Origin: Paracoccus suum
GTDB lineage: Bacteria; Pseudomonadota; Alphaproteobacteria; Rhodobacterales; Rhodobacteraceae
Assembly: GCF_003324675.1 (NCBI RefSeq)
Contig: NZ_CP030918.1
Location: 150,001 to 182,000 of the forward strand
DNA length: 32,000 nt
Direction: 5' to 3'
Part shown: piece by piece, positions 3,723 through 32,000 of the stretch
Numbering within the stretch: position 1 is the stretch's first letter
How the letters are laid out: each line of letters starts with the position of its first letter
The notes under the pieces: model-generated
Databases searched by the model: none
The model's input: the letters and a program-made list of their open reading frames with translations, nothing else
Told to the model about the DNA's origin: nothing
Program-made: the position numbers and the translations under genes

Positions 3723-3761
3723 GCCTGCACCAAGGGCCCGGGCGACTTGAGATATTGACCT

Positions 3762-8896: not shown

Positions 8897-8905
8897 GGCA
8901 TTCGT

Positions 8906-8925: not shown

Positions 8926-8948
8926 CTTTCAATGACAGGGAATATCGC

Positions 8949-10610: not shown

Positions 10611-10629
10611 TCCAGAGGCTAAAAGAATG

Positions 10630-10654
10630 GGGCCGGCCCGCGCAGGGCCGGCCC
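10630..10654. terminator. Bidirectional rho-independent-type terminator between convergent operons
   Basis: GGGCCGGCCC-gcgca-GGGCCGGCCC forms a 10-bp perfect stem with a 5-nt loop. It is flanked by AAAAGAAT on the left, which gives a T-tract for the minus-strand transcript. It lies between stop codons at 10610 (+) and 10662 (-). Confidence 0.6.
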
Positions 10655-10661
10655 TATCGAT

Positions 10662-12227: not shown

Positions 12228-12297
12228 GACGAGGCCTTCCCTGTTGGCGCCGAAATGCGGCGCGATGAAGGGTCGCGGCCCCGGGCCGCGGCCCCGA

Positions 12298-15848: not shown

Positions 15849-15858
15849 GTCTGCTCCT

Positions 15859-16776: not shown

Positions 16777-16786
16777 GGTTGCGCCC

Positions 16787-17761
16787 TCACAGTTTCACGC
16801 GGGGATCGACCTTGGCGTAGATCAGGTCGACAAGCAGGTTGAGCAGCACGAAGATCACGGCCAGCACGATCACTGCCGATTGGACGACCGGGATGTCACG
16901 CTGGTTCACGGCGTTGAACACCAGGCGTCCAAGGCCCGGGTAGCTGAAGACGGTCTCGATCACGACGACCCCGCCAAGCAGAAAGCCGAACTCGAGCCCC
17001 ACCATTGTGATGACCGGCAGCCAGGCATTGCGCAGGGCGTGGTGGACGACGACCGCACGCTCGGTCAGGCCCTTGGAGCGGGCAGTGCGGACGTAGTCCT
17101 GGTTCAGCACCTCGAGCATGGACGAGCGCACGAGCCGGGCGTTGCGCGACAGCGAGTAAAAGCCCACGGCGATCCCTGGCATGACCAGGTAGTAAAGAGT
17201 TCGGGGCAGGTTCTTGAAAGCCGTGACAAAGTCGCCTTGCAGAAGCGGCTGCAGGAATGGCACGTGACCCGAGATCGGGAACCAGTGCAGATAGAGGCCG
17301 AAAAACAGGATCATCATGATCCCCAGCCAGAAGTTCGGGACGGATTGTCCGAACATCGCCAGCGTGATGATGCCGCCGTCGAGCGCCGTGCCGCGGTTCA
17401 GCGCGGCAAAGACCCCGAACGGCACCGCCAATGCCATGGCGAAAACGAGGGCAAAGACGGTCAGTTCGATCGTGGCAGGCAGAGCCCCCAGGACAAGGCC
17501 CATGGCGGGCTGACGATAGCTGAGCGAGTTGCCGAAATCGCCGCGGACGACCTGTCCGATGTAGCTGAGATATTGCACGTACAGCGGCCGGTCGAAACCG
17601 AGAGCATGGCGCACCATCTCGATTTCCTGCTGGCTGGCACGTTCACTGACGAACAGGTAGGTCGGATCGCCACCGATCTGCAGCGCGATGAAGCTGATGA
17701 GCGTCACGCCCAGCAACACAACGATGCTCTGCAGCAATCTACGGGCAATGAAGGTCCACAT
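16787..17761 (-). CDS. ABC transporter permease (DppB/OppB-like)
   Basis: Canonical N-terminus MWTFIARRLLQSIVVLLGVTLISF and the loop DYVRTARSKGLTERAVVVHHALRNA. Confidence 0.9.
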   Translation of the reverse strand: MWTFIARRLLQSIVVLLGVTLISFIALQIGGDPTYLFVSERASQQEIEMVRHALGFDRPLYVQYLSYIGQVVRGDFGNSLSYRQPAMGLVLGALPATIELTVFALVFAMALAVPFGVFAALNRGTALDGGIITLAMFGQSVPNFWLGIMMILFFGLYLHWFPISGHVPFLQPLLQGDFVTAFKNLPRTLYYLVMPGIAVGFYSLSRNARLVRSSMLEVLNQDYVRTARSKGLTERAVVVHHALRNAWLPVITMVGLEFGFLLGGVVVIETVFSYPGLGRLVFNAVNQRDIPVVQSAVIVLAVIFVLLNLLVDLIYAKVDPRVKL

Positions 17762-17781
17762 GGCGGTTCCTCGGGCAACGG

Positions 17782-17813
17782 GGACTGCCGCGCACTGCTA
17801 CGCGCGGCAGTCC
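17782..17813 (-). other. Intercistronic stem-loop (12-bp perfect stem GGACTGCCGCGC/GCGCGGCAGTCC, 8-nt loop)
   Basis: Read directly from the sequence in the 57-nt gap between the binding-protein stop (17819) and the permease start (17761). Confidence 0.5.
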
Positions 17814-17818
17814 GGCTG

Positions 17819-19369
17819 TTACTTCACGGCGACGTCGTGGAGGAAGATTTCCTCGTCGGGCCGGGCGACGAAGTCGATGCGGTTGCTGACGCCGTAGAAA
17901 TCGGGCTGGAAATACAGCAGCAACCAGGGGCCGTCCTCGTAGAACACCGTCAGCATCTCGTCGATGATCTTGCGCCGGTCCTCCTCGGTCGCGGCGTTCT
18001 TGATGTCCTCCCAGCGGTCGAACCAGCGCGGATCGCTCCACCGGGTGTAGTTGGTTCCGGCGTCGACCTCGGACAGATCGCTCATGTCGTAGAGGGCCGA
18101 CCATTTGGCGCCGCCGGTCCCGAGGAAAAACATCGGACCCGCGTTACGCTCGCGGATCAGCGGGACATAGACGCTGCTCCACTCCATCAGTTCGGGCTCG
18201 ACATTGATGCCGATGTCGCCGAGATACTGCGCGATCGCCAGGATGACGTTCTGGTCGTTGAGATAGCGCCCACGTGGACCCTGCAGCTTGATGCTGAAGC
18301 GCTCGCCGCCGTCCTTGCGGGGCCAGCCAGCCTCGTCGAGCAGCTTTTCCGCCATCTCCGGATCGTAAGGATAGGGTTTCAGCGCCTTGTTGTCATTTGG
18401 CGGGTTCACAAGGCCCGTGGCACGCTCGCATTCGAAGTTCAGCAGTTGCTTGCAGATCGCCGGGACGTCGATGGCGTATTGCATCGCACGGCGGACCTTG
18501 GGGTCCTGGATCGCGTCGCCGCCGGGTTGGGTCTTGAACTGCTCGCCCATGTTAAAGCCGACATACATGCGGCGCGTGCCCTGGATGGCCTGCACCTTTG
18601 CCACCTTGCTGGCGTTGATCGCATCGAGCTGGTCGGGCGCCACATTGGTGATCAGATCCACGTTGCCGCCGATCAGCTCGGCCGTGCGGGTGCTGGCCTC
18701 CGGGATGATGCGCCAGACGATGCGGGCTGCCTTGGCACTGGGATCGACCCGCTCCAGCACGACTTCCGAGCCTTTGGCCCAACTCGCCAGCTTGTAGGCG
18801 CCCGATCCGATGGGCGATGTCGCCGCCTGGTCGGGCGACATCTTTTCGTAGCTGTCCTTGCAATGGATATAGACCTCGGCCAGCAGGCCCTCGGCAATCA
18901 GGTTCTTATCGCCGAGCATGATCTTGACGTGGCGATCGTCGACAGCCTCTGCCTTGTCGAATGCAATGGACGAATAGATGAAGCCGGGCGTGTTGCCGGT
19001 AAAGTTGCCCGCCGGGTCCTTGCCGCGGTTGAAGCTGTAGGCGACGTCCTCGGCGGTCAGCGGCTCGCCGTCATGGCAGGTCAGACCTTCCTTCATGGTG
19101 TAGGTGTAGGTCTTGCCGTCCTCCGAAACCTCCAGGCTTTCGGCCAGCGAGGGCTCGAACTTGCCCTCGGCCGACACGGTATAAAGGGTGCCGAAGATGT
19201 GGCGCGCGATATTGGCATTGTCGCGCGACGCGATGTTATCGGGGTCGAAAGTCGTCACGTCCGCAGACAGACCCACGACAATCGTGTCAGCGGCCGGTTG
19301 CGCCATGGCCGGCATCGCCAGCAGCAGCCCCGAGGCTGCGACGGATGCAAGCAGTCCGAGCTTGTTCAT
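17819..19369 (-). CDS. ABC transporter substrate-binding protein, family 5, paralog 3
   Basis: Signal peptide MNKLGLLASVAASGLLLAMPAMA, preceded by GGAGGT. It is very similar by eye to paralog 1 (TIVVGLSAD, LTAEDVAYSFNR, NTPGFIY, AICKQLLNFECERATGLVNPPND). The start overlaps the upstream stop (ATGA). Confidence 0.9.
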   Translation of the reverse strand: MNKLGLLASVAASGLLLAMPAMAQPAADTIVVGLSADVTTFDPDNIASRDNANIARHIFGTLYTVSAEGKFEPSLAESLEVSEDGKTYTYTMKEGLTCHDGEPLTAEDVAYSFNRGKDPAGNFTGNTPGFIYSSIAFDKAEAVDDRHVKIMLGDKNLIAEGLLAEVYIHCKDSYEKMSPDQAATSPIGSGAYKLASWAKGSEVVLERVDPSAKAARIVWRIIPEASTRTAELIGGNVDLITNVAPDQLDAINASKVAKVQAIQGTRRMYVGFNMGEQFKTQPGGDAIQDPKVRRAMQYAIDVPAICKQLLNFECERATGLVNPPNDNKALKPYPYDPEMAEKLLDEAGWPRKDGGERFSIKLQGPRGRYLNDQNVILAIAQYLGDIGINVEPELMEWSSVYVPLIRERNAGPMFFLGTGGAKWSALYDMSDLSEVDAGTNYTRWSDPRWFDRWEDIKNAATEEDRRKIIDEMLTVFYEDGPWLLLYFQPDFYGVSNRIDFVARPDEEIFLHDVAVK

Positions 19370-20421
19370 TCGGTACCTCCCGTGGTCGTTGACCCTGCCG
19401 GCTCCACTGCGGTCAGGGTTCGTGGATCAATGGTCTGGCCGGTGCGTGCGGATTCGATGCACGCCTCGACCATGCGGAGCGAGTTGAGATGATCGGCGCC
19501 GGTGCAGGGGGCGGGACCGCCATGCAAGAGGTGCCGCAGGAAATCGTCCAGCAGACCGGCCGCATCGTCCACCCAAGGCTCGATCGGGGGCAGCGGCACA
19601 GGGGCCAGCGGCTCGTGCCGGCGTCCCTGGACGAGCCCGTCGAACATGTCGGTCTGGACGGCGATGCCCTCGGCGCAGTCGGTGCGCCAGTCAAAGCCCG
19701 GGCTGTCGTGGCTGCCGGCCCAGGTGCCTTGGTAGGTAACCTCGATGCCGTTATCCAAGGTGATCAGCGCCGAGACATTGGCGTCGCCCCGATACATCGA
19801 CCACGGTGGATTCCAGGTCCGGGCCGAGATGGCGACCGCGTCGGCGCCATAGACAAAGCGCATCAGGTCAAAATGGTGGATAGACTGCTCCCACAGCATC
19901 GGCTGGGGCATGGTCAGGGGGTAGCGGTTGATCCCAGGACGGTAGCCGTTGCGCCAACGTTCATACGTAAAGCGGCCAAAGGCCGGCGCACCTAGACGGT
20001 CCGGCGCAAAGAGCGCCATCAGCGCCTGCGTCACCGCAAGATAGCGAAAATTCAGTCCAACGGTCAGCGTGACACCGGCGGCGGCACAGGTCGCGACATG
20101 CGCCTCTGCCTCGGCCACGCTGTCAGCGAGCGGCTTTTCCGCCAGGATGGCGAGGCCGGCTGAGGCCGCTGCGGCGATCTGGCCCGTGCGGCCGCCGGGA
20201 GGGGTGATCAGCAGAACTGCATCGGCAGGCACGGCCGCGGCGACCGTTCCCAGATCGGCGCCGGTTACGACGTCAGGCAGCTGCTCCGCCGCTTCGGCCA
20301 GCGCAGCCTCGTTGGTGTCAACGATGCCGACGATGCGGCAGCGGCCGTCCGCGGCCATCACCTGCCGCCAAAGACGCGAGCGCGCGCCCAGCCCCACCAG
20401 AATGAAACGTGCCTCGTTCAT
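19366..20421 (-). CDS. Gfo/Idh/MocA family oxidoreductase
   Basis: Internal ATG 20421 (MNEARFILVGLGARSRLW...) is preceded by GGAGGG and overlaps the upstream stop (ATGA). The EKP motif appears as AILAEKPLADS. The 143 extra N-terminal codons of the track ORF are Arg/Pro/Gly-rich and overlap the upstream gene. Confidence 0.85.
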   Translation of the reverse strand: MNEARFILVGLGARSRLWRQVMAADGRCRIVGIVDTNEAALAEAAEQLPDVVTGADLGTVAAAVPADAVLLITPPGGRTGQIAAAASAGLAILAEKPLADSVAEAEAHVATCAAAGVTLTVGLNFRYLAVTQALMALFAPDRLGAPAFGRFTYERWRNGYRPGINRYPLTMPQPMLWEQSIHHFDLMRFVYGADAVAISARTWNPPWSMYRGDANVSALITLDNGIEVTYQGTWAGSHDSPGFDWRTDCAEGIAVQTDMFDGLVQGRRHEPLAPVPLPPIEPWVDDAAGLLDDFLRHLLHGGPAPCTGADHLNSLRMVEACIESARTGQTIDPRTLTAVEPAGSTTTGGTE

Positions 20422-21323
20422 GCCGCCCTCCGTCCCGCCGCCAGCGCTGGCAGCGCGTTCTCCGGGCTGGTCCATGGAAAATCCGTCAGGGCCGAAAGCT
20501 GGCTGGCGATCATCGGCCCCTTGATCGCGCCCTGCGCAGGCGCCTCGCGGGTCGGGGCGCCGGGGGCGATCAACGCGCACATCTGGCTGTCGTGGCGGAT
20601 GTGCGGGCTGGCGAGATGGATCGGCCGGTGCGTCGTCCCGCCCGGCTCGTCCACCAGTAGCGCCAGTGCGGCGCCGATGTCGGGCGCCCAGGTCCAGTCG
20701 CGGCGAGGATCCCCCGAGACGATCTCCAGCGCCTGCCCCTGCGCCGCTGCAGCCCGCCAAAGCGCGACGGGCGAGAGGTGCCTGCGGCTCGCACGGGACC
20801 GCTCGTCCGGGCCGTAGATGTGGCCAAGCCGGACGACATGCGCATCGCAAAGCCCGGCGAGGGCTGCCGGCACGATACGTTCGCCAGCAAGCTTGGCCGC
20901 GGCGTATGGCGATGCGCCAGTCGGCACGGCGTCGTCGTCGAGGTCGGGCCGCCCGTCCTGCGGCGCGAATACGCCCGAGGAGGACAGGAAGACGAAAGCC
21001 TTCGGCGGGGTTGCGCTAACAGATTCTAACACCGCCAGCAGTGGATCGAGGTTGGCGCGCAGATGCGCGGCAGGCGTGATGCCCAAGGCCCGCGGCCCGG
21101 TAGTCAGGGCTGCGGCGTGAATCACCAGCTCGGCCGGCGGCAAGTGGGTGCCGGGGCCCAGGTCGCACTCAATCAACGTGGCCCGGGCGAGCGCCCCGCG
21201 CGCCTCTTCGTCAAAGCTACGGTCCAGCGCGGTGACGGCGTGGCCATGGCGCGCAAGCGCCGCCGCAATTGCGCCGCCGACAAAACCGCCGGCGCCGGTG
21301 ACGATGGCGCGCCGCGTGCTCAT
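20418..21323 (-). CDS. NAD-dependent epimerase/dehydratase family protein
   Basis: Internal ATG 21323 gives MSTRRAIVTGAGGFVGGAIAAAL (the GxxGxxG motif). YAAAKLAG carries YxxxK. The start overlaps the GntR stop (ATGA). Confidence 0.8.
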   Translation of the reverse strand: MSTRRAIVTGAGGFVGGAIAAALARHGHAVTALDRSFDEEARGALARATLIECDLGPGTHLPPAELVIHAAALTTGPRALGITPAAHLRANLDPLLAVLESVSATPPKAFVFLSSSGVFAPQDGRPDLDDDAVPTGASPYAAAKLAGERIVPAALAGLCDAHVVRLGHIYGPDERSRASRRHLSPVALWRAAAAQGQALEIVSGDPRRDWTWAPDIGAALALLVDEPGGTTHRPIHLASPHIRHDSQMCALIAPGAPTREAPAQGAIKGPMIASQLSALTDFPWTSPENALPALAAGRRAA

Positions 21324-22006
21324 TCGGACCAGGCCGCCACGGCCGCGGGGTCGAGCGTCGCGAGTTTCCGCGTATGCTCGGAGATGAGCCGGACCGCCAG
21401 TTCGTCGTCGCGATCCTCCATGGCCCTGACGATGGGCGGGTGGTTGGCAGCAATATCGCTCAGCGGCACGCGGCGGTCGTTGCGCAGCGCCATGATCTGA
21501 TGGATGCGCAGATAGATGTCGTTCCAGCTGCGGGCCAGCAACTGGTGCTCGGCCAATCCGATCAGGGTGCGGTGAAAGGACTCGTCGGCCGCGATCAGCG
21601 ACGGACGGTCTTCTGCGACGGCTGCCGCCGTCATTCGGTCGCAGGCCTCCCAAAGCAGCCCCAGATCTGCGCCCGATTCGAGGATCAGGCGCACCGCCAT
21701 GACCTCGAACACTTCGCGCATCTGGTAGGTCTCGGTCACCTCGCGCGGCGAGAGGGGCTTGACCCACTTGCCTTTGTAGGCGGCAGTCTCGACCAGGCCA
21801 TCCGCCTCGAGAATCTGGATCGCCTCGCGGATCGGGGCGCGGCTGACATTCAATTCTTCAGCGAGCGCAGTTTCGACCAGCACGGTGCCGGGACGCAACT
21901 CACCCGAGACGATTGCATTGCGCAACTTGTCGGCGATCTGAAGGCGCAGCGGGATCTGTTCGATCGGACCCAGAATGCGCGCACGTGCGGCGGTTGCTTC
22001 ACGCAT
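21320..22006 (-). CDS. GntR family transcriptional regulator (FadR-like, FCD C-terminal domain)
   Basis: Winged-HTH sequence IADKLRNAIVSGELRPGTVLVETALAEELNVSRAPIREAIQILEADGLV, followed by an all-helical C-terminal domain. Both ends overlap the neighbouring genes. Confidence 0.9.
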   Translation of the reverse strand: MREATAARARILGPIEQIPLRLQIADKLRNAIVSGELRPGTVLVETALAEELNVSRAPIREAIQILEADGLVETAAYKGKWVKPLSPREVTETYQMREVFEVMAVRLILESGADLGLLWEACDRMTAAAVAEDRPSLIAADESFHRTLIGLAEHQLLARSWNDIYLRIHQIMALRNDRRVPLSDIAANHPPIVRAMEDRDDELAVRLISEHTRKLATLDPAAVAAWSE

Positions 22007-22898
22007 CTTCGTTCACCCCGCCGGCAAGGGCCGCGGCCTCGGCGATGGCGGGGGCGGCGGTATCCATGGCGACCAGCGGCGGGCGGGTGCGGGCGTATTC
22101 GGGATCATTCATGCGCCGCGCTACGGCGGCCTTGATCGCCGGGATCAGGTCGGGCCCTTCGAACCGACGTCGCACCTCGGTGACTGCGTCCAGCAGCCGC
22201 GCTTCGTCAGGCGTGCCAAGGCCCCGGATCAGGGCCGCAATGCCATGGGCGTTCACGTTGGCGGTGGCGCTGATGCAGCCCGCCCCGCCTGCCGCGACGT
22301 TGCGCGGCAGCAGGGACTCCGAGGAAGAAAAGATCTCCATCTCGGGGAAGGCGTCGAGCATCGCGGCGGTGTTGTCCCAATTGCCGGAACTGTCCTTCAA
22401 CCCGACGACCATCCCCGGAAACGCCTCGCGCAGTCGCGCGATCAGGTTGGCCGTGACCGGCACGCCAGAGGTCTGGGGGATGTGATACATGTAAAGGCGC
22501 AGGGCCGGCCCCGCGGCCTCGATCACCCGGGCAAAGCTGGCCGCCAATCCGTCATCGCTGACCGGCTTGTAATAGAACGGCGGCAGCGTCAGCGTGCCGC
22601 GCACACCCAGCGATACCGCATGTCTGGTCAGCGCAATCGTGTCGGGGAGTGCCGCGCAACCCGTGCCGGGGACCAGAACGGCAGGATCGATTCCGCCGGC
22701 GACCAGCGCCTCCAGCGCGTCAATGCGTTCGGACACGCTCAGCGAGTTGGCCTCGGAGGTGGTGCCAAACGGCGCGAGGCCGTCGGCGCCATCGGCGATC
22801 AGGCGTTTGCCGATCGTGACAAGGCGCTCGCGATCCACCGACAGATCGGGCCGGAACGGAGTGACGAGCGGGACAAGGACTTGGGGACGAGAGGTCAT
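21999..22898 (-). CDS. Dihydrodipicolinate synthase / N-acetylneuraminate lyase family (class I aldolase/deaminase) protein
   Basis: LVTPF...DGLAPFGTTSEANSLS...PPFYYK...GLKDSSGN. The last block contains the Schiff-base Lys context typical of the DapA family. Confidence 0.85.
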   Translation of the reverse strand: MTSRPQVLVPLVTPFRPDLSVDRERLVTIGKRLIADGADGLAPFGTTSEANSLSVSERIDALEALVAGGIDPAVLVPGTGCAALPDTIALTRHAVSLGVRGTLTLPPFYYKPVSDDGLAASFARVIEAAGPALRLYMYHIPQTSGVPVTANLIARLREAFPGMVVGLKDSSGNWDNTAAMLDAFPEMEIFSSSESLLPRNVAAGGAGCISATANVNAHGIAALIRGLGTPDEARLLDAVTEVRRRFEGPDLIPAIKAAVARRMNDPEYARTRPPLVAMDTAAPAIAEAAALAGGVNEDA

Positions 22899-22905
22899 GT
22901 GCGTT

Positions 22906-23373
22906 TCACCGGGATGAGGGGATGTCGATCATCAGGGGCGCGATATCTGCGAACTGGTCGTCATCGGGCGCACCCCGCCACATCAGCACGGCAAAGCTGC
23001 CGGGGTCGTCAAGGACGGAGATGCCGGCGTGCCAGATACCCTGACGGTAAATAACCCCGCGATTTCCCGGGACAACGAAGGATTTTGCCGCACGGCGCTC
23101 CGGCCCGCCGTCGGGCGCCGCCGGAAAAACCGTGACGAGGTAACGCCCTACGTCGAGCGGGAGGAACGCCTGTGCTGCATAGGGGTGGCGCTCGACCCGG
23201 CTCAGCGTGCAATCGCCCGGCTCGACCCAGTTGGTGTGGAATTGTAGTTTCAACCCGGCGACCGGTGGCATCAGCGGATCCCACATCGTGCGCTCGCCCG
23301 CCCTTGCCGGCGGTGCAACGAGTGCGGCATAGGGCGCCAGGGCCCCCGCATCAGCTGCGGCCGCGCGGATCAC
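22906..23373 (-). CDS. Ureidoglycolate lyase (AllA) family cupin protein
   Basis: ERHPYAAQAFLPL and GVIYRQGIWHAGI blocks match AllA-family sequences as I recall them. The start is proposed at GTG 23373, overlapping the upstream stop (GTGA). The track ORF start at 23418 would overlap the upstream gene by 49 nt. Confidence 0.65.
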   Translation of the reverse strand: MIRAAAADAGALAPYAALVAPPARAGERTMWDPLMPPVAGLKLQFHTNWVEPGDCTLSRVERHPYAAQAFLPLDVGRYLVTVFPAAPDGGPERRAAKSFVVPGNRGVIYRQGIWHAGISVLDDPGSFAVLMWRGAPDDDQFADIAPLMIDIPSSR

Positions 23374-24296
23374 TCGGCTACCTCGCGCCACTGCGGGGCG
23401 GGCACCACCGTACGCCAATGGGCTGCAAGATCAGCACGGCGGCAGATCCAGACGTCGTCGCGACCCTGAAGATGGTCCAGCAGCATCGCGATCCCCACCA
23501 TGCGGCCAGGATGGGCCACCACGCGGGAGTGCATCCCCACCGACATCATGCGCGGATGCAGGTCGGCCTCCGCCCTCATGCCCTCGAAGCTGTCGATCAG
23601 GAACTCGCCGAAGGTGCGCCCGGACACCAGCGGTCCGGAGACGAGCTTGGAATCGTTCGTGGCCAGCGAGTACGGAACGACCAGGTGCGGCTTGGTCCCG
23701 ACCTCGGTCCAATAGGGCAATTCGTCATTATAGGCGTCGCTATCGTAGCTGAATCCGCCATGCTCGACCACAAGCCGGCGGGTGGCCAACGACGGACCAT
23801 AGCGGCAGTAGAACCCCTCGGGCGGGCGACCCAGCAGCTTGGTGAGGACCGCGTGGCCACGGGCGATATGCTCGCGCTCCGTCGCCTCGTCCAGCAGGTA
23901 GTGCTCGACCCAGCGCCAGCCGTGGCAGACGGCGTCCCAGTCCGTTTCGCGCAGGGCGGCTGCCGCCTCTGGGTTGCGCTCCAACGCCAGTGCCGAGGCG
24001 AAGATCGTCAACGGCAGGCCGCGCTCGGCAAACAGGCGATGAATGCGCCAGAAGCCGACGCGACTGCCATATTCAAACATGCTCTCGGCTGCGAGATCCC
24101 GCTGTCCAACGGGAACACGCGGCGCGCTGACCTCTGTCAGGGTCGCATCGCTGCGACCGTCGCCATCGCCCATCGCATATTCGGAGCCTTCTTCGTAGTT
24201 AAGGACGAAATTGACCGCGACGCGCGCGCCGTTGGGCCAGGTGATCTGGGGCACCTGTCTGCCGTAGCCAATCAGATCGCGGGGATGGCGGTCCAT
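23370..24296 (-). CDS. Polysaccharide-deacetylase-fold allantoinase-like protein (PuuE family)
   Basis: Contains DLIGYGRQVPQITWPNGARVAVNFVLNYEEGSE, FEYGSRVGFWRIHRLF, HGWRW, GGFSYDSDAYNDELPYW and VVPYSLATND. The start is at ATG 24296 (MDRHPRDL...), one nt after the upstream stop. Confidence 0.8.
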   Translation of the reverse strand: MDRHPRDLIGYGRQVPQITWPNGARVAVNFVLNYEEGSEYAMGDGDGRSDATLTEVSAPRVPVGQRDLAAESMFEYGSRVGFWRIHRLFAERGLPLTIFASALALERNPEAAAALRETDWDAVCHGWRWVEHYLLDEATEREHIARGHAVLTKLLGRPPEGFYCRYGPSLATRRLVVEHGGFSYDSDAYNDELPYWTEVGTKPHLVVPYSLATNDSKLVSGPLVSGRTFGEFLIDSFEGMRAEADLHPRMMSVGMHSRVVAHPGRMVGIAMLLDHLQGRDDVWICRRADLAAHWRTVVPAPQWREVAE

Positions 24297-24297
24297 G

Positions 24298-25290
24298 TCA
24301 GTCACGGGTGCCTTCGACTTTGCAGAAGAAACAGCACCAGTCACCCGTCGTCACATTGGGCAGCGCGCGCAGGCCAAAGAACATCCCGTCGGCGGGCGCC
24401 ACGATCTCGCTCTGTTCATCGCCGAAGATGTCGACGATGCGGGCGATGCGCTGGCCCTTGGTCATCATCGTCAGGAATTTCACGCCTGGCTCTGGGATGA
24501 AAATGCCCGAGGCTGGGGCGAGCAGCGCCTCCTGGATGCCCTTGTAACGCGGGCTGGGGTAGCTCGCCTCGCCCGGATACATCTTGTAGTGACGCAGGAT
24601 GTTCAGGATCGAGTCCGCGAGATCGCGGCCGACCTTCGCGAAACCCTCCGGCGAGGTCGCCGAACGACCGCCGAGTTCGACCGTGATCCCGACCTTGCCC
24701 AGCGACTTCAGGTGGGCCATCGGGCTGCCCGACGGGTTGAAGTTCGACATGATGCAGCCCCAGCCCGGCCCCATCGCAGTCGCAAGCTCGACCCCCGCCG
24801 GGGACTCGTCGGTGAAGATCGACTTGTCGAGGAAGGAATGCGCCCCGCCCGAGTGGATCGAGATCTCGAAATCCGCGACCGGGCCCATCGCCTCGGCATG
24901 CGCCGCCGCCACGCGCTCGGACAGGTAGCCGCCGGGCTTGCCCGGATAGATGCGGTTCATGTCATAGCTGAAGGTGTCGGCCGGGTTTCCGCGCTGCGCC
25001 GCCTCGAACGCCGGAACGTTCACCACCGGCACCAGCACCAGCGTGCCTTTCAGCTTCGCCGGGTCGACCTCGCGCAGCGCGATCTGGCAGGCCAGCGGCC
25101 CTTCGGGCTCGTCGCCGTGGATTGCGCCGTTGACCCAGAAACAGGGACCCTCGTCAGCACCATTGACGATGACGACCGGGATCTCCAGCGAGGTGCCGCC
25201 CGCGAGGCGGGTGACGGGAATGGCGCCCCGGACCACGGTGCCGGGGGCAGCGGTGGCGGTGCCGACGGTGACGGTTTTGCCTTTGCTCAT
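24298..25290 (-). CDS. Succinylglutamate desuccinylase/aspartoacylase (AstE/AspA) family zinc deacylase
   Basis: Internal ATG 25290 (MSKGKTVTVGTA...). NGAIHGDEPEG supplies zinc ligands, with a later ISIHSGG and VELGG. The upstream 145 codons of track ORF 24298..25725 overlap the VOC gene in another frame. Confidence 0.85.
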   Translation of the reverse strand: MSKGKTVTVGTATAAPGTVVRGAIPVTRLAGGTSLEIPVVIVNGADEGPCFWVNGAIHGDEPEGPLACQIALREVDPAKLKGTLVLVPVVNVPAFEAAQRGNPADTFSYDMNRIYPGKPGGYLSERVAAAHAEAMGPVADFEISIHSGGAHSFLDKSIFTDESPAGVELATAMGPGWGCIMSNFNPSGSPMAHLKSLGKVGITVELGGRSATSPEGFAKVGRDLADSILNILRHYKMYPGEASYPSPRYKGIQEALLAPASGIFIPEPGVKFLTMMTKGQRIARIVDIFGDEQSEIVAPADGMFFGLRALPNVTTGDWCCFFCKVEGTRD

Positions 25291-25294
25291 GACG

Positions 25295-25771
25295 TCAGAC
25301 CCCCTGGACCTGGTACTGTTCCAGTTGCTCGGGCGTGTAGACCTGCATGAACTCGATCTCGATGCCGCCGGCGTCGTTGTCGAGGAACGCGACCCATCCC
25401 TCGGGGTGGGGATGGCTGCCGTATTTCTGGCAAGCCTGGCAGATACGCAGGCTGGCGCCCTGCGCCTCGGCATGGGCCAGCGCCGCGTCGATGTCATCGA
25501 CCTCGTAGCAGATGTGGTGGAGACCCTCGCCGCCGCGTTCGTCGATCCACTTGGCAAAGCGGCCATCGGGAACCATCGACTGGCACAGCTGGTATTCGAT
25601 GCCGCCCAGGTAGAACAGCGCGACCCGGTTCTGGGATTTCGGGAACACGGTGATCTCGGTATCAGCCGGCACGTGCAGGAAGCGGGCGTAGGCAGCCAGC
25701 GCCGTATCGGCGTCACGCACGGCAAAGGCCATGTGCTTGATGCCCTTGACGTTCGGATTATCGGATTTCAT
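25295..25771 (-). CDS. VOC family protein (methylmalonyl-CoA-epimerase-like)
   Basis: IKHMAFAVRDADTALAAYARFL...GLHHICYEVDDIDAALAHAEAQG...GGIEIEF is a paired beta-alpha-beta-beta-beta module pattern. Confidence 0.8.
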   Translation of the reverse strand: MKSDNPNVKGIKHMAFAVRDADTALAAYARFLHVPADTEITVFPKSQNRVALFYLGGIEYQLCQSMVPDGRFAKWIDERGGEGLHHICYEVDDIDAALAHAEAQGASLRICQACQKYGSHPHPEGWVAFLDNDAGGIEIEFMQVYTPEQLEQYQVQGV

Positions 25772-25786: not shown

Positions 25787-26980
25787 TCAGGCGGCGCGGG
25801 TTTCGGATCGGATGGCATCGACCACGGCGCGCATGCGCTCGATGGCCTCGTTGATGCGCGGCACGCTCTGGGTCAGTGACATGCGCACAAAATCATCGGT
25901 GTGATCGCCGTAGATCGTGCCCGGATACATCAGCACCCGTCCCTCGCGCAGAAGCCGCTCGCAAAAGACGCCGGCCGGCACGCCGGTCACGGACACATTG
26001 GCGTAGACGTAGAACGCCCCCTGCGGCTCGGCGTAGGGGATGCCGAGGCTGTCGAGCCCGGCGCAAAGCGCGCGCCGCCGCTCCTCGTAGATCGCGCGCA
26101 TTTCGGCCACGCAATCCTGGGGCCCGGTCAGCGCCGCCAGAGCCGCGTGCTGGCTGACAGCGGCCGTCGAGATGGCGAGCGCGTGGTTGATCTCGGCCAG
26201 CGCCGGCATCAGCTCTGGGGGGCCCGCTATATAGCCGATTCGCCAGCCGGTCATCGCGTAGGCCTTGGAAAAGCCCGACAGCGTAAAGGTGCGCTCGGCC
26301 ATGCCGGGCAGCGCCGCGACCGGCTGGGCGCGGTGATTGCCGAACGTCAACTGCGCATAGATCTCGTCCGAGATGACCAGCAAGTCGTGCTCGCGCGCTA
26401 CCTCGGCGATGCGCGCGACCTCGTCTGGGGGAGTGACGGTGCCCGTCGGGTTGTTGGGATTGATCAGTACCAGGATTTTCGAGCGCGGGGTGATGTGCGC
26501 GCGCACCATCTCGGCCGTGATGGTGAAGTTCGTTTCCATGGTCGTGCGGATGTTCACGACCTCAGCCTCTGCCAGTTCGGCGGCCTGGTGATAGGGATTG
26601 TAGCCCGGGCACGGGACCAGGATCTCGTCGCCGGGATTCAACAGGCCCAGCGCGAGGACGAACATCGCCTGCTGGCCGCCCGGGGTTATGATGATCTGGT
26701 CAGGCTGATAGTCGGCGCCGCCGCGCGCACGGATGTCGTCCGCGATTGCCTCGCGCAGCGGCAGGATCCCGAACGGGTGGGTGTAGTGCGTGGCGCCATT
26801 CGCCAGCGCCTCCTGCCCCGCGCGAATGATATGCTCGGGCGTGTCGAGGTCCGGATCGCCCCGCCCGAGCCGGATCACATCCGGCAGGCTTTCGGCGATA
26901 TTGGCCATCTGCGTGACCAGATGGGCATCCTTCAGCTTTACGCGCGTGGCCAGGCGGCTGGTCGGTTCCGTCATGATCAA
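25787..26980 (-). CDS. Pyridoxal-phosphate-dependent aminotransferase, class I/II
   Basis: Contains LGRGDPDLDTP, NPNNPTG and SGFSKAYAMTGWRIGY (the PLP-lysine motif). The start overlaps the M32 stop (ATGA). Confidence 0.9.
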   Translation of the reverse strand: MIMTEPTSRLATRVKLKDAHLVTQMANIAESLPDVIRLGRGDPDLDTPEHIIRAGQEALANGATHYTHPFGILPLREAIADDIRARGGADYQPDQIIITPGGQQAMFVLALGLLNPGDEILVPCPGYNPYHQAAELAEAEVVNIRTTMETNFTITAEMVRAHITPRSKILVLINPNNPTGTVTPPDEVARIAEVAREHDLLVISDEIYAQLTFGNHRAQPVAALPGMAERTFTLSGFSKAYAMTGWRIGYIAGPPELMPALAEINHALAISTAAVSQHAALAALTGPQDCVAEMRAIYEERRRALCAGLDSLGIPYAEPQGAFYVYANVSVTGVPAGVFCERLLREGRVLMYPGTIYGDHTDDFVRMSLTQSVPRINEAIERMRAVVDAIRSETRAA

Positions 26981-28515
26981 ATCCCGTAGATTTCGCTGTA
27001 TTTCTGGGTCAGCTGGGCGATGTAGGGCTCTGGATCGAGGGTTCGGCCCGTGGCCCGCCGCAACAGCTCGTTGCGCTCGTAGCGACGACCGTGCTGGTGT
27101 ACGTTTTTGACCATCCAGCCCAGCAAGGGGCCATAGTCCGCCGCAGCAACGCCGGCCGCCACATCGGCATCCTTGGTCGCGGCCTCGTAAAGCTGGCCGG
27201 CCATGACGTTGCCAATGGTGTAGTTGCAGAAGGTGCCGATCTGGCCGGACGACCAGTGCACATCCTGCAGCACGCCCATGCGGTTGTTCGGCACCTCGAG
27301 CCCCAGATCCTGGCGGATGCGGGCGTTCCAGATTTCGGGAAGGTCTTCGACCTTCAGGCTGCCATCGATGAGGCCGGCCTCAATATCGACGCGCAGCATG
27401 ATGTGGAAATCATAGCTAAGCTCGTCCGCCTCGACCCGGATCAGGCCGGGGGCGACACGGTTCACGCCCCGCCAGAATGCCTCGGCATCAACGTCGGCCA
27501 GCTGTTCGGGGAAGGCGTCGCGGGCGGTGCCGAAATTGGCCTCCCAGAACGCGCGGGAACGGCCGACGTGGTTCTCGAACAAGCGCGACTGGCTTTCATG
27601 CGCGCCAAAGCTGACCCCCGCCACGGCATAGAGGCCGACCAGATCGGTCGCGAGCGGCGTGCGTGTAAAGGCCGGGTCGCAGTTCTGTTCGTAGAGGGCG
27701 TGCCCCGCCTCGTGCAGGCAGCCGAACAGGCACATCGGCATCCAGTTTTCATTGGTGCGGCTGGTGATGCGGACGTCGTTGCGCGTGAACGATACCTCGA
27801 AGGGGTGGACGGTGGTGTCCAACCGGCCCCGGTCGAGGTCGTAGCCGAGCCGCTGGGCCATGGTCCGGCCAAAGGCCAGTTGCTCGTCAACCGGAAAGGG
27901 GCGGCGCAGGAACTCTACATCCGGGGCAGTGCGGGACATGACGGTCTGCAGCAGCGGGCGCAGCGCCTCACGCAGTCGGCCGAACAGAGGCTGCAACGAG
28001 GCGACCGTCTCGCCGGGCTCAAAGCGATACATCAGCGCGTCGTAGGGGTGCTCGGCGTAACCGATATGCTCGGCCATCTCGCGATTGAGGGCGACCGTGT
28101 CGGCCAGCAACGGCGCGAACATCGCGAAATCGTCCTTGGCTCGCGCCTCGGCCCAGATTTCCTGGCCGATCGAACCCATTTCGGTGCGGCGGCGAATCAG
28201 CTCGGCCGGAATGCGGTCGTGATAGTCCAGTGCCTCGCGAACCTGGGCGCAGACCGTCGCCTCGACCGAATCGGCATCCTTGCTCTGGATTTCGGCCTGG
28301 GCCGCGTCGAGCAGGCGCCGGGTTTCGTCCGCCACCAGCGTGTCGCGAGCCAGCACCGAAAGCGTCGCAACCTGCTTTGCCCGCGTCTCCGCGCCGCCGC
28401 GCGGCATCATCACCCGAGCATCCCAAGAGAGGACCGATTTAGCGTTCAGCAGGTCGTTGACCTGGCCCATGCGATTTAGCAGCGCGGCGTATGACACGAG
28501 TTCCAGGCCTTTCAC
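26977..28515 (-). CDS. M32 family carboxypeptidase (Taq-type)
   Basis: HEAGHALYEQ (HExxH), the N-terminal ...LSWDARVMMP, and the YDALMYRFEPG and DVHWSSGQIGTFCNYTIGNV blocks typical of M32. GTG start at 28515. No signal peptide. Confidence 0.9.
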   Translation of the reverse strand: MKGLELVSYAALLNRMGQVNDLLNAKSVLSWDARVMMPRGGAETRAKQVATLSVLARDTLVADETRRLLDAAQAEIQSKDADSVEATVCAQVREALDYHDRIPAELIRRRTEMGSIGQEIWAEARAKDDFAMFAPLLADTVALNREMAEHIGYAEHPYDALMYRFEPGETVASLQPLFGRLREALRPLLQTVMSRTAPDVEFLRRPFPVDEQLAFGRTMAQRLGYDLDRGRLDTTVHPFEVSFTRNDVRITSRTNENWMPMCLFGCLHEAGHALYEQNCDPAFTRTPLATDLVGLYAVAGVSFGAHESQSRLFENHVGRSRAFWEANFGTARDAFPEQLADVDAEAFWRGVNRVAPGLIRVEADELSYDFHIMLRVDIEAGLIDGSLKVEDLPEIWNARIRQDLGLEVPNNRMGVLQDVHWSSGQIGTFCNYTIGNVMAGQLYEAATKDADVAAGVAAADYGPLLGWMVKNVHQHGRRYERNELLRRATGRTLDPEPYIAQLTQKYSEIYGI

Positions 28516-28545
28516 TCAGCAGTCGTCGACGATGTATTTTGTATG

Positions 28546-28565
28546 TTGTCGACATTAGACGATCC
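28546..28565. promoter_or_regulatory. Candidate operator TTGTCGACAttaGACgATCC in the 108-nt divergent control region
   Basis: An 8-bp perfect palindrome TGTCGACA (28547-28554) sits in the most AT-rich stretch of the region. A second 10-bp palindrome TCGTCGACGA lies at 28523-28532. The motif is shared with 7317-7336. Confidence 0.35.
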
Positions 28566-28623
28566 GACTATCGTCAGCTCCGCAACCGGTGTCAAGCATC
28601 GTCGCCGCGAAAGGGAGGACGGA

Positions 28624-29493
28624 TTGGTCGAGCTTCTTCAGTGGAACACCCCACAGCTGGTGGAGATGGCCGTGACCGGACAGGTCAGCCAGCCATCAGT
28701 CCGGCAAGGGGGTGCGCATGTGCATTGGCCAGACGGGCGGGCGGCCGTGCTGCCGGGCATGTTTGGCATCGCCTACAACGCCCGCGTCGGCGATCGCGCC
28801 TTTGGCTGGGCCGGCGATCACGTCGAGCCCGGCGTCTCTATCGCGAATGCTACTGAGGCCGCCGACTTCGCGCTGCACTACCTCACCTGCATCGGCAACG
28901 AGGCCACGGTGACCACCGGCCTCGCGCGGGGCGCGACGGGCGTGGTGACCGGTGAGCATGGCCGTTTGCTCGTCGATTTTGCGCCCGAGATTCTCGAGGA
29001 CATGACCGTCGGCGACACGGTCCAGATTCGCGCGGTCGGCCGGGGCCTAAGCCTGACCGACTACCCCGAGATCGAGTTCAAGAAGACATCGCCCGCCTTG
29101 GCCGAGGCCTACGGCATCAGGCAGGAAAACGGGCAGGTCATCTGCCCCGTCGCCATGGAGTTGCCGGCGCGAATCATGGGCTCGGGGGCCGAGCTGAACT
29201 CGGAATATGTCGATCAGGACCTCATGTCCGGCGACCGGGCGCTGATGACCGAACTGGGCATCGATACTATGCGCCTTGGCGATCTGATCGCGATTCGCGA
29301 CGTGGACCATCGCTTTGGCCGGTCCTTTCGGCCTGACTGGGTCGCGATCTGCATCTGCATCCACGGCGATTCGATCATGACGGGGCACGGCCCCGGAATT
29401 CTGACGCTGATCACCGGTCCGGCCGACAAGCTCGGCTTCAGCGTCGAGCCCGGCGCCAACATTGCCCGCACCCTGAACATCCGGAGCCTGTGA
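28624..29493 (+). CDS. Uncharacterised conserved protein, paralog A (possibly DUF4438-like; family name from memory, unverified)
   Basis: Paralogous to the next ORF. The start is proposed at TTG 28624, 4 nt after a strong AAGGGAGGA. This gives about 289 aa and aligns with the N-terminus of paralog B. The alternative ATG 28543 has no RBS and would leave only 27 nt to the divergent M32 start. Confidence 0.7.
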   Translation: MVELLQWNTPQLVEMAVTGQVSQPSVRQGGAHVHWPDGRAAVLPGMFGIAYNARVGDRAFGWAGDHVEPGVSIANATEAADFALHYLTCIGNEATVTTGLARGATGVVTGEHGRLLVDFAPEILEDMTVGDTVQIRAVGRGLSLTDYPEIEFKKTSPALAEAYGIRQENGQVICPVAMELPARIMGSGAELNSEYVDQDLMSGDRALMTELGIDTMRLGDLIAIRDVDHRFGRSFRPDWVAICICIHGDSIMTGHGPGILTLITGPADKLGFSVEPGANIARTLNIRSL

Positions 29494-29494
29494 C

Positions 29495-30385
29495 ATGACC
29501 GCTTCCAGCAGCCTCGCCACCAATGCGGCCAACCTGGTCGCCGTCTCGGTCGCGGGCCATATTGCCCATCCCGGCTTTCCAGGCCTGCCGGCAGAGCCCT
29601 ACCGCCTCGCCGCCGATGGCCGACCCTTCCTGCTGCCGGCCTATGGCGGCATCGTCTATAATGTCAGCGTCGGCGACCGGGCATTCGGCTGGGCAGCCGA
29701 CTGCGTGCATCCTGGCATCTCGCTGCGCCAGCCCGAGGATACGCGTAACCGCGGCCTGAACGTTTATGCCTGTGTCGGTAATCGTGCCAAGGTCATGACC
29801 GGCCCGGCAGCCGGCGCAAAAGGCGTCGTGACTGGCAAGTCGGGCCGCTTTTCCGAACAGGTGATCGTCCACTTCCCGCGCGAGGCCCGCAAGGCGATGG
29901 CCGTGGGCGATCAGATCGTCATCCGGTCCGAAGGGATCGGAATGGAGCTGACGGACCATCCCGGCGTCATGATGAAGGGAATCGCCCCCGAGCTGCTGGC
30001 CGCCCTGCCCTCGCGCACTGATGGCAAACGGGTCGAATTCGGCGTCGTCGCGCGCATCCCCGCGCATCTCGCAGGTGCCGGCCTGGGTCTGACCTCGGAT
30101 GGGGGCAGCCTGCATATGCAATCGACGGATCGGGCGCTGCTGGCCAGCCTCGGCCTGGACCAAATGCGGCTCGGCGACATCGTGGCGATCGAAGACACCG
30201 ACAGCCGCTACAACCACGGCTATTTGCGCGGCGCCTGCACCATCGGGGTGGTTTGCGCCACCGATGGCCCGCGCGCTGGCTTTGGCCCCGGTATCGCCAT
30301 CCTGATGACCGCGCCGGCGGGCGAGATGGGCACGTTTGCCGAGCCGGCAGCGAACCTCGCCGACCTTCTGAAGCTGGAGGCGTGA
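29495..30385 (+). CDS. Uncharacterised conserved protein, paralog B (possibly DUF4438-like; unverified)
   Basis: 296 aa, starting one nt after the paralog A stop (TGAcATG). Shares blocks YNVSVGDRAFGWA, CVGNRAKVMTGPAAGAKGVVTG, VGDQIVIRSEGIGMELTD, MRLGDIVAIEDTDSR and GPGIAILMTAPA with paralog A. Confidence 0.8.
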   Translation: MTASSSLATNAANLVAVSVAGHIAHPGFPGLPAEPYRLAADGRPFLLPAYGGIVYNVSVGDRAFGWAADCVHPGISLRQPEDTRNRGLNVYACVGNRAKVMTGPAAGAKGVVTGKSGRFSEQVIVHFPREARKAMAVGDQIVIRSEGIGMELTDHPGVMMKGIAPELLAALPSRTDGKRVEFGVVARIPAHLAGAGLGLTSDGGSLHMQSTDRALLASLGLDQMRLGDIVAIEDTDSRYNHGYLRGACTIGVVCATDGPRAGFGPGIAILMTAPAGEMGTFAEPAANLADLLKLEA

Positions 30386-30387
30386 TC

Positions 30388-31470
30388 ATGCCCATCGCGA
30401 TGACCAATGTGACCCGCGCAAGTCTGGCGCGCTTCATGGCGGAAGGGTTCCGGGCCCTCGGCCTCAGCGCCGGGGACGCCGACATCTTCGCCGACGCGCT
30501 GATCTTTTCAGAACTGCGGTTCCACCCCGGGCACGGCCAGGGAGTCCGCCGCCTGCGCCGCTATCAGGAGCGGATTGCCGAGGGGCTGGTAGACCCTGCC
30601 GCGCCGTGGGAGATCATCAAGGAAAGCCCGGCGCTTGCCCTGGTCGATGCGCATAACGGTATCGGCACGGTCGCTGCGGCCAAGGCGATGCGACTGGCGG
30701 CCGAAAAGGCCAAGACCTGCGGCATCGGCCAAGTGGTGGTCCGCAACTCGACACACTATGGCAGCAGCGCGGTCCATGCCTGCGCCGCCGCAGAGGCCGG
30801 CTGCATCGGCATCAGTTTTACCAACGCCGGGCCCGAGATGGCGCCGTGGGGCGCGCGCGAAGGCGCGGTCGGCACCAATCCGTGGGGCATCGCGGCGCCT
30901 ACCGGCCTCGGCTTTCCAGCCGTCCTCGACATCGCGCTGACGACTGCCGGTAAGGGGATGATGCAGTGGCACGCGCGCGAGGGGCGGCCCATGCCGCTCG
31001 ACTGGGCGCTGACCCCGGAGGGCGCCGAGACCGACGATCCCAATGCTGCCATGGCCGGCGCCCTGCTGGGGATCGGCACCTACAAGGGCTACGGCCTGGC
31101 CTTCATGACCGACGTGATGACCGGCGTTCTCGGCGGCGGGGGCTATGGCCTGACGCCCTATGCGGATCAAGGCAAGTTGGACGTCAGTCACACTCTGACC
31201 GCCATCGACATCGAATGGTTCATGCCACTGGAGGAGTTTCGCCGCCGGATGGACGACTTCGCCCGGATGGTGAAGTCGCGCGCCCTGCGCCCCGGATTTA
31301 CCGAGATCCTGCTGCCCGGCGAGCAGGAGGCCCGCCGGGTCGAGCGCAAATCGCGGGCGGGCGTGCCCATCGACGATGAGGTGCTAGCCGACCTTCAGGC
31401 GCTGGGTGATGAACTGGGCCTGTCGGCGAAACTCGAACTGGTCGGCCCATACACGGAGGCGGTCCTGTGA
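30388..31470 (+). CDS. Ldh2 (malate/L-lactate dehydrogenase type 2) family oxidoreductase
   Basis: Internal ATG 30388 is preceded by GGAGG. The sequence has HGIGTVAA, VRNSTHYGSS, GTNPWGIAAP, AGKG and YKGYGLAFM, typical of the family that includes ureidoglycolate dehydrogenase and pyrroline/piperideine-2-carboxylate reductases. Confidence 0.85.
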   Translation: MPIAMTNVTRASLARFMAEGFRALGLSAGDADIFADALIFSELRFHPGHGQGVRRLRRYQERIAEGLVDPAAPWEIIKESPALALVDAHNGIGTVAAAKAMRLAAEKAKTCGIGQVVVRNSTHYGSSAVHACAAAEAGCIGISFTNAGPEMAPWGAREGAVGTNPWGIAAPTGLGFPAVLDIALTTAGKGMMQWHAREGRPMPLDWALTPEGAETDDPNAAMAGALLGIGTYKGYGLAFMTDVMTGVLGGGGYGLTPYADQGKLDVSHTLTAIDIEWFMPLEEFRRRMDDFARMVKSRALRPGFTEILLPGEQEARRVERKSRAGVPIDDEVLADLQALGDELGLSAKLELVGPYTEAVL

Positions 31471-32000
31471 CACCCCTGCCTGCCGCCTTCCACGCCATGC
31501 TGCGCGATCGGCTGCGTGCCCGGGCCGAGGCTGCGGGCCTCGACGGGTTGCTGCTGCTGGCGCCGGGCAATGTGGTCTGGGCGACAGGCTGGGCTTTTTC
31601 GGCCAACGAGCGCCCGCTGGGACTATGGCTGCCAGTGGAGGGCGACGCAGTCCTGATGGTGCCCTCGCTGGAGGTTGAGAACGCAGCCGATGTGCCGGGC
31701 GTCGGCCTGCGCAGCTACGACGAATACCCCGGCGAGACGCCCCCGGTCCTATGGATGATCGCCGAAGCGCGGGCGCAGCGGATCGGCGTGGAACGGCTGG
31801 ACGCGCGCCTGCTGGCCCCGGCACAGGACGTGGCGCGGATCGACCTGACCGATCACGCCACGCCCGAGCGCGCGGTCAAGCACCCGGAGGAGCTTGCCCT
31901 GATCCGCGAGGCCGCGCGGTTCGCCGACATGGTCCTCGACCGCCTGCTGACCGCCGGCGGCGACATCGTGGCGCAAGGTGGGACGGAACTGGACCTGATG
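31467..32000 (+). CDS. M24 family peptidase (Xaa-Pro peptidase/creatinase-like), partial; continues past the right edge
   Basis: Absent from the ORF track because it is open at the edge. GTG 31467 overlaps the Ldh2 stop (GTGA). Translation reads VTPLPAAFHAMLRDRLRARAEAAGLDGLLLLAPGNVVWATGWAFS...VKHPEELALIREAARFADMVLDRL. This resembles a creatinase/prolidase N-domain followed by the start of the pita-bread domain. Confidence 0.75.
   Translation, partial: MTPLPAAFHAMLRDRLRARAEAAGLDGLLLLAPGNVVWATGWAFSANERPLGLWLPVEGDAVLMVPSLEVENAADVPGVGLRSYDEYPGETPPVLWMIAEARAQRIGVERLDARLLAPAQDVARIDLTDHATPERAVKHPEELALIREAARFADMVLDRLLTAGGDIVAQGGTELDLM

Follow-up and report, generated by a model that had tools for sequence, protein, structure and literature searches.

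A translationally coupled pair of DUF4438 paralogs in Paracoccus suum as candidate subunits of a hetero-oligomeric enzyme in a cross-phylum catabolic island

The 32,000-nucleotide stretch of the Paracoccus suum genome analysed here (contig NZ_CP030918.1, positions 150,001 to 182,000; referred to below as the window) carries two adjacent paralogous genes, here named A and B, whose products belong to the DUF4438 family. In our best overall reading, to which we assign a probability of roughly 0.4, the two proteins would be subunits of one obligate hetero-oligomeric DUF4438 enzyme in which A is catalytic and B is remodelled. Membership of DUF4438 is not new in itself, as NCBI already labels both genes in this way. 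The new elements are a canonical/non-canonical pairing rule, a candidate active site of seven residues and a family-wide link to peptides, which turn an anonymous annotation into a testable model. The pair is thus a solid target for enzyme discovery rather than a startling anomaly, and solving its function would probably reveal a new enzyme class together with its substrate.

A preliminary description of the window, made from its letters, had reported a tandem of coupled paralogs sharing one third to 40% of their residues, and this observation was confirmed. Comparison of the two protein sequences by BLASTP gave 39% identity over 290 amino acids (E 3e-64), a similarity greatly in excess of chance, and all five blocks listed as shared in that description were seen in the alignment. 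The gene junctions also read as described. Gene A runs into gene B through TGAcATG (ctgTGAcATG in its immediate context), and an Ldh_2-family gene led by GGAGG begins 2 nt past the stop codon of B (GGAGG..TGAtcATG, GGAGGcgTGAtcATG). This gene in turn overlaps by GTGA the next one, whose product has a Creatinase_N (M24) domain. Gene A is preceded by the Shine-Dalgarno sequence GGGAGGA (28613-28619), with its TTG start codon at 28624 lying 4 nt downstream. This start agrees with the N-termini of orthologs and with RefSeq WP_241963318.1, while GenBank AXC48435.1 represents an alternative start at ATG 28543, giving a protein of 316 amino acids. A promoter scan picked out one sigma-70-like site on the minus strand, TTGACA-17-GATAGT from 28595 to 28567, by consensus match only (0.0 expected).

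The DUF4438 assignment suggested in the preliminary description proved correct on the basis of Pfam domains, a sequence match to the Thermotoga maritima protein TM1086 and Foldseek superposition. Specifically, A matched PF14505 (DUF4438 N-terminal; E 6e-46, 156 bits) and PF20999 (DUF4438_C; E 3e-39, 134 bits), and B matched the same two profiles (E 1e-49, 168 bits and E 1e-34, 119 bits, respectively). In both proteins the domains occur in N-then-C order and score above the Pfam gathering cut-offs of 24.9 (PF14505) and 27 (PF20999). Pfam profiles gave nothing beyond these two domains and no NCBIfam model matched either protein. TM1086 is the sole solved relative, with 5 (PDB 3DCL) and 30 (PDB 3N99) chains per asymmetric unit, and A and B are 37-40% identical to it. 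A phmmer search aligned residues 7-292 of B to 3N99/3DCL with an E-value of 6e-56, and the DUF4438 family profile, which reached E 5e-129, found TM1086 alone among PDB sequences. AlphaFold2 (AF2) models of A (predicted local distance difference test score, pLDDT, 93.8; predicted template-modelling score, pTM, 0.92) and of B (pLDDT 88, pTM 0.90) were superposed on TM1086 by Foldseek with TM scores of 0.90-0.93 and 0.87-0.92, respectively, and matched the 3DCL chains with E-values of 1e-31 to 1e-34. Beyond TM1086, every Foldseek match of the two models to the PDB had an E-value above 0.01 and was not significant. A match to a characterised enzyme family would have undercut the idea of an undescribed activity; Pfam, NCBIfam, PDB sequence and Foldseek searches gave none and led only to DUF4438 and TM1086. 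Since TM1086 is without an assigned function, membership of DUF4438 yields no chemistry.

A further suggestion of the preliminary description, that the proteins are built from small KOW/SH3-like modules, was not established. The non-significant Foldseek matches of the two models do include small-barrel proteins (L35Ae, KOW proteins and PanD), with the L35Ae, eL14 and Spt5 KOW barrels all at E > 0.07 (0.08-0.7). A Pfam scan of A and B gave no KOW match at E <= 0.01. Alignment of the DUF4438 N- and C-terminal domains with hhalign gave a probability of 11%, the best sub-segment pair reaching 40% over 13 residues, and hence no significant duplication. The family itself comprises 834 clusters at 50% identity (E <= 1e-3), or 177 at E <= 1e-30. 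Within the literature library searched, there was no paper naming DUF4438 and a single match for PF14505, in which the accession is mis-cited for a different family. For TM1086 it yielded a crystallisation-methods table and otherwise unrelated C. elegans strain names. The crystallisation-methods paper puts the asymmetric unit of TM1086 above 1 MDa, and the content of the crystals is compatible with a large oligomer.

The A-B arrangement is strictly conserved among orthologous loci. When one genome per GTDB species was scanned, orthologs of the B type (54-79% identity) turned up at 80 loci. Their hosts belong to Alphaproteobacteria, Gemmatimonadota, Acidobacteriota, Chloroflexota and Deinococcota, and one is a cyanobacterial metagenome-assembled genome. 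Gene A lies upstream of B in all 78 loci with room for it, directly in 76 and with a larger gap in 2. In 52 of 77 loci the end of A and the beginning of B have 4 nt in common (a stop/start overlap), and in 69 of these 77 the spacer is in the range -8 to +10 nt. The pair is followed, on its own strand and no more than 3.1 kb away, by an Ldh_2 gene at 57 of 64 loci. Mean pairwise identities are similar for the two proteins (66.1% for A, 64.7% for B) and their divergences correlate (r = 0.90). The neighbourhood comparison proposed in the preliminary description thus came out in favour of a fixed pair as far as orthologs are concerned, with linkage to Ldh_2, M24, M32 and family-5 transporters. It did not do so for the family at large, where unlinked single-copy genes are common, so that pairing is a trait of the subfamily. 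Two loci depart in detail: in L039 a gap of 366 nt (9677-10043) separates A from B, and in L069 the match to B covers 1310 nt (10001-11310), possibly owing to an inserted segment or a shift of frame.

The two paralogs differ sharply at seven positions. Alignment of orthologs of A (77) and of B (77) with proteins of the TM1086 clade (120) and representatives of the family (74) revealed a canonical signature, H-E-H-D-D-H-H, formed in A by H65, E67, H111, D196, D198, H246 and H254, and in TM1086 (native numbering) by H60, E62, H106, D195, D197, H243 and H251. It is present in 77/77 A orthologs, 120/120 TM1086-clade proteins and 34/74 family representatives, and in 0/77 B orthologs. Protein B of P. 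suum has all seven positions swapped (C70, H72, S116, S205, H207, A255 and F263). The B-type consensus is C-H-S-S-H-Q-Y, its first five positions being conserved at 93%, 100%, 93%, 100% and 100% within B. From this pattern of conservation, we propose that the seven residues of A form a single metal or catalytic site. A separate set of polar residues is common to both proteins (D64/D69, C88/C93, N91/N96, D130/D139, D219/D228, D227/D236 and N278/N287, in A/B order); three of the shared aspartates sit in 'GD' motifs and may have a structural role.

The same asymmetry recurs outside the B-type group. All the single-copy DUF4438 genes sampled, from Thermotoga, Clostridia, other lineages and about 40 metagenome loci, are canonical, including 27/27 of the single-copy metagenome loci flanked on each side by 0.9 kb or more. 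Conversely, all sampled non-canonical copies with a checked neighbour abut a canonical copy (78 B-type loci, together with L091, L092, L093 and L097-L100; Table 1). The occurrence of non-canonical copies only beside canonical ones predicts a hetero-oligomer. In addition, one natural fusion (P0242, L096:865-2775) joins a non-canonical half to a following canonical half in a single open reading frame of 636 amino acids. Its N-terminus is hydrophobic and resembles a signal peptide (MKKFIISFVSVSSLLILAAFPVSVTG), which hints at export of some DUF4438 members. Identity among the B, xESACxY and xQSCQHx types is about 50%. The HEI/KQI-type pair is more distant, with only 26-34% identity to A or B and about 30% to every other group, and its canonical member is closest to one single-copy clade (45-49% identity); pairs therefore arose at least twice. 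The sets of replacing residues differ from type to type (NESACSY, REHSAAY, HEICQSA, KQICESA and RTFQHCL), and the lack of a common set gives the impression that one functional block was lost repeatedly.

Gene context links these pairs to the uptake and hydrolysis of peptides. The B-type island, of about 20 genes, carries an ATP-binding cassette (ABC) importer with a family-5 solute-binding protein (SBP), M24 and M32 peptidases and an amidohydrolase resembling Xaa-Pro dipeptidase. Pairs of the xESACxY and REHSAAY types also lie near family-5 SBP transporters, together with VOC, Ldh_2, Amidohydro_1, aminotransferase and oxidoreductase genes. The independent HEI/KQI pair is found in an operon of the order M29, non-canonical copy, canonical copy, with a divergent Opp-type importer containing two SBP5 genes and a second M29 gene nearby. 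Lastly, in one single-copy clade the DUF4438 gene is followed directly by an M18 (L102) or M42 (L105, L106) aminopeptidase gene. The denominator shared by these independent lineages is peptide import plus exopeptidases (M29, M42, M18, M24 and M32), and the linkage to Ldh_2, VOC and aminotransferase genes is specific to the A/B superclade. The consistency of this association narrows the search for the substrate. A role of the pair in the catabolism of imported peptide-like compounds is, on this evidence, likely. Since the island is common to marine, soil and wastewater bacteria from six phyla, the compound that it handles is probably an abundant form of dissolved organic nitrogen.

In the 51 loci that offer 8 kb or more on either side of the pair, the most frequent neighbours were Ldh_2 (47), VOC (45), an aminotransferase (44), a protein of about 474 amino acids (43), GFO/IDH/MocA oxidoreductases (41), an epimerase (41), M24 (37), the Xaa-Pro-dipeptidase-like amidohydrolase (36), GntR (36), M32 (29), a PuuE-like protein (28) and AstE/AspA (26). 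M20 peptidases were found near the pair in only 2 of the 51, though one lies in the P. suum window. The protein of about 474 amino acids (L001:13587-15011) gave no Pfam, NCBIfam or PDB sequence match and is a second component of the same pathway without an assigned function. Contrary to what the preliminary description had proposed, the pair is accordingly not the sole unassignable component of the island. The P. suum copy of this gene would fall past the end of the window, and a 472-amino-acid copy is present in the distant L092 island. With regard to the substrate, the SBP resembles glutathione-, agropinic-acid- and peptide-binding proteins only distantly (closest solved SBPs), and the AstE/AspA protein is distantly DoeB-like. 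A tblastn search of PLSDB plasmids with A gave no match, and hence no link to opines or Ti plasmids. Hydroxyproline peptides, ectoine-like compounds, peptidoglycan stem peptides, ureides and opines were considered as candidate substrates, and none of them explains the whole island.

Based on these results, we propose that A retains the ancestral site, for whose seven His, Glu and Asp residues a divalent-metal or catalytic site is the simplest reading, and that B, a paralog evolving in concert with A, has had this block remodelled. Protein B would then serve as a structural, specificity or gating partner rather than as a second identical catalyst. The two proteins probably form a physical complex, as their strict pairing, overlapping stop and start codons, correlated divergence, single fusion and the confinement of non-canonical copies to pairs all suggest. 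Such a complex would be cytoplasmic, its substrate being a small nitrogen compound of peptide-like character delivered by the family-5 (Opp/Dpp-type) ABC importer. Its reaction might be the metal-dependent hydrolysis of an amide or peptide bond beyond the reach of the classical exopeptidases of the island, with the product then taken over by the VOC-fold protein, the aminotransferases and the Ldh_2 oxidoreductase, whose gene is co-transcribed with the pair. Of the possible reactions, amide hydrolysis is the likeliest, in view of the His/Asp/Glu block and of the many peptidase genes found around the family in independent lineages; judged from gene context and residue type, it is nevertheless a doubtful assignment. 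A wider proposal would make DUF4438 an unrecognised enzyme class with its own fold, namely a large self-compartmentalising metal-dependent peptidase or amidase, or another peptide-processing catalyst, acting as a homo-oligomer or, after at least two independent duplications, as a hetero-oligomer of a catalytic and a pseudo-subunit. The A/B enzyme would then catalyse the committed step of a cross-phylum catabolic pathway for a common peptide-like nitrogen compound. We consider this proposal rather unlikely. The more general interpretation of the pair in the preliminary description, as a good candidate for an undescribed activity, is supported.

Several points weigh against a catalytic A with a remodelled B, and against hydrolysis in particular. 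Pfam, NCBIfam and PDB fold searches revealed neither a peptidase or hydrolase profile nor a metal-binding motif (HExxH, HxxEH) in A or B. The real active site could be the set of polar residues common to both proteins. Protein B may hold a different active site of its own instead of playing a passive role, given that C70, H72 and H207 are 93-100% conserved. The fusion was found once only, on a contig of 3.2 kb, and TM1086-clade genes have no informative neighbourhood. Moreover, the linkage to Ldh_2, VOC and aminotransferase genes suits isomerisation or dehydration as well as it suits hydrolysis.

This last point leads to the alternative that survives best, which we nonetheless regard as unlikely: a hetero-oligomeric isomerase, epimerase, dehydratase or lyase whose substrate would be an intermediate derived from an amino acid and whose keto or imino product would be reduced by Ldh_2. 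Parallels can be drawn with the epimerise-dehydrate-reduce logic proposed for EutABC in hydroxyectoine catabolism, and with the pairing of a dehydratase and a pyrroline-2-carboxylate reductase in hydroxyproline catabolism. The regular occurrence of Ldh_2 downstream of B, often with a VOC-fold protein in between, is in keeping with such a scheme, as are the linkage of Ldh_2, VOC and aminotransferases to the xESACxY and REHSAAY pairs, the DoeA-like (M24) and DoeB-like (AstE/AspA) genes of the island and the cysteine that is invariant in both paralogs (C88 in A, C93 in B). However, the HEI/KQI pair is without a nearby Ldh_2, VOC or aminotransferase gene and has M29 peptidases and an Opp importer instead, and M18 and M42 aminopeptidases adjoin single-copy genes. 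The Ldh_2 protein, whose NCBIfam matches are all below cut-off (best, L-sulfolactate dehydrogenase) and whose closest PDB entries are 1V9N and 2X06, resembles archaeal 'malate' and sulfolactate dehydrogenases more closely than it does the imine reductase DpkA, and no homology of the pair to dehydratases or racemases was found by Pfam, PDB profile or Foldseek.

It is also improbable that A and B are two separate homo-oligomeric enzymes that have diverged to different, probably consecutive, reactions, with coupling serving only to equalise their expression. The replacements in B are strongly conserved and its Cys, His and His could make a new metal or catalytic site; purifying selection on B is as strong as on A, and TM1086 shows that the fold is capable of forming homo-oligomers. 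Against this stand the other non-canonical types, which lack a common ligand set and so resemble repeated loss of a site rather than a defined gain, and the finding that no sampled non-canonical copy was seen without an adjacent canonical one. The existence of a natural fusion and the retention of 4-nt stop/start overlaps across phyla speak in the same sense. Lastly, a non-enzymatic pair, forming a large oligomeric scaffold, cage, chaperone or substrate-holding factor for exopeptidases or Ldh_2, would suit the unique fold without catalytic relatives, the very large TM1086 crystal assemblies and the recurrent peptidase neighbours that are already complete enzymes, but is very improbable since seven His/Asp/Glu residues that stay invariant in over 200 diverse canonical sequences would be expected of a catalytic or metal site more than of a scaffold, and many single-copy genes have no peptidase neighbour.

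The favoured arrangement, a catalytic A with a remodelled B, can be set beside known systems. TM1086 shares full-length domains and fold with A and B, and A keeps every polar residue conserved in the family. It differs in that TM1086 and its clade are single-copy without a conserved neighbourhood, whereas A and B are a fixed canonical and non-canonical pair in a catabolic island, and B is without the seven-residue signature. TldD/TldE (PmbA) is a heterodimeric metalloprotease of linked or co-occurring paralogs, one of which keeps the metal motif while the other is degenerate, and acts on small peptides within an enclosed oligomer. It offers the best analogy for the proposed A/B architecture, and this is an analogy only, as A and B have no PmbA_TldD Pfam match, Foldseek match or HExxxH motif. 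Side-by-side paralogs also form one enzyme in the mitochondrial processing peptidase (MPP alpha/beta, M16), the p-aminobenzoyl-glutamate hydrolase AbgA/AbgB (M20) and the carboxyguanidine deiminase CgdAB, with either one site active or both specialised, and with roles in the catabolism of small nitrogen compounds. Their folds and motifs are unrelated to those of A and B, and no homology is implied. The self-compartmentalising TET aminopeptidases (M42 and M18) form large homo- or hetero-oligomers that act on imported oligopeptides, and are encoded beside single-copy DUF4438 genes in L102, L105 and L106. The fold of TET aminopeptidases is different, the lone Foldseek match to PhTET1 being non-significant (E 0.56, TM 0.16), and the link is one of neighbourhood only.

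Table 1 Features of the P. suum window (positions in the window) and other DUF4438 pair types (locus identifiers)
Feature	Position or locus	Strand	Remarks
Uptake/oxidoreductase module of the conserved island	14772-21350	-	Includes two GFO/IDH/MocA oxidoreductases and an NAD-dependent epimerase
Two permeases	15859-17761	-	
Family-5 solute-binding protein	17819-19369	-	
GntR/FCD regulator	21320-22006	-	
DHDPS-family protein	21999-22898	-	
Ureidoglycolate-lyase-like protein	22906-23418	-	
PuuE-like deacetylase	23370-24344	-	
AstE/AspA-type deacylase	24298-25290	-	
VOC/glyoxalase	25295-25771	-	
Class I/II aminotransferase	25787-26980	-	
M32 carboxypeptidase	26977-28515	-	First gene of the divergent operon; Pfam E 6.5e-169
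Divergent intergenic region	28516-28623		Between the M32 operon (-) and the DUF4438 operon (+)
Paralog A, canonical DUF4438 subunit	28624-29493	+	289 aa; TTG start; RefSeq WP_241963318.1
Paralog B, non-canonical DUF4438 subunit	29495-30385	+	296 aa; ATG start; 100% identical to NCBI P. suum protein
Ldh_2-family NAD(P)-dependent oxidoreductase	30388-31470	+	Pfam E 6e-105; most constant downstream partner
M24 (creatinase/prolidase-type) peptidase	31467-32000	+	Creatinase_N domain; continues past window end
Canonical + NESACSY	L092		
HEICQSA + canonical	L093		
KQICESA + canonical	L097-L100		
LQSCQHY	L091		Preceded by an A-like C-terminus
REHSAAY + adjacent DUF4438 gene	P0448 locus		Adjacency alone observed

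The genes of the divergent operon between 21320 and 26980 are syntenic in other phyla. The best NCBIfam match of the VOC protein is methylmalonyl-CoA epimerase, below the cut-off, and a full-length ortholog of the truncated M24 gene (L001:9975-11138) has a Peptidase_M24 domain and a PepQ-like NCBIfam match. Outside the core island, the window holds further family-5 SBP genes at 7352-8896 (+) and 10662-12449 (-), an M14 carboxypeptidase gene at 8904-10610 and an M20 dipeptidase-like gene at 12687-14195, which make the region (7352-14195) unusually rich in peptide uptake and hydrolysis. Two genes near the opposite end of the window seem to have no connection with the island, one for a multihaem cytochrome c with c7/c3-type motifs (2577-3236, +) and one for a protein like gluconate 2-dehydrogenase subunit 3 (3513-4160, -).

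Some minor observations concern single-copy members of the family. In Thermotoga sp. KOL6 a rhomboid protease gene begins 5 nt after the single DUF4438 gene, and in Zhenhengia a gene for an Rce1-like (CAAX) intramembrane protease precedes it; these membrane-protease neighbours (L087:8857-9525 and L089:7044-7973) may be coincidental. The neighbours of single-copy loci L101-L145 include two encapsulin shell proteins (Linocin_M18) and two EncFtn-like cargo proteins. Radical-SAM, GHL10, GTPase and isochorismatase genes recur in one syntenic set of single-copy loci, which probably represents one lineage rather than independent evidence.

Sequence comparison also bears on the history of the island. 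The P. suum A, B and Ldh_2 proteins (28624-31470, compared with L007-L048) are 72-82% identical to copies from Gemmatimonadota, Acidobacteriota and Tabrizicola, and A and B are only 59-64% identical to those of other Rhodobacteraceae (Roseicyclus, Pseudooceanicola and Planktomarina). This pattern suggests that the whole island has moved horizontally between phyla.

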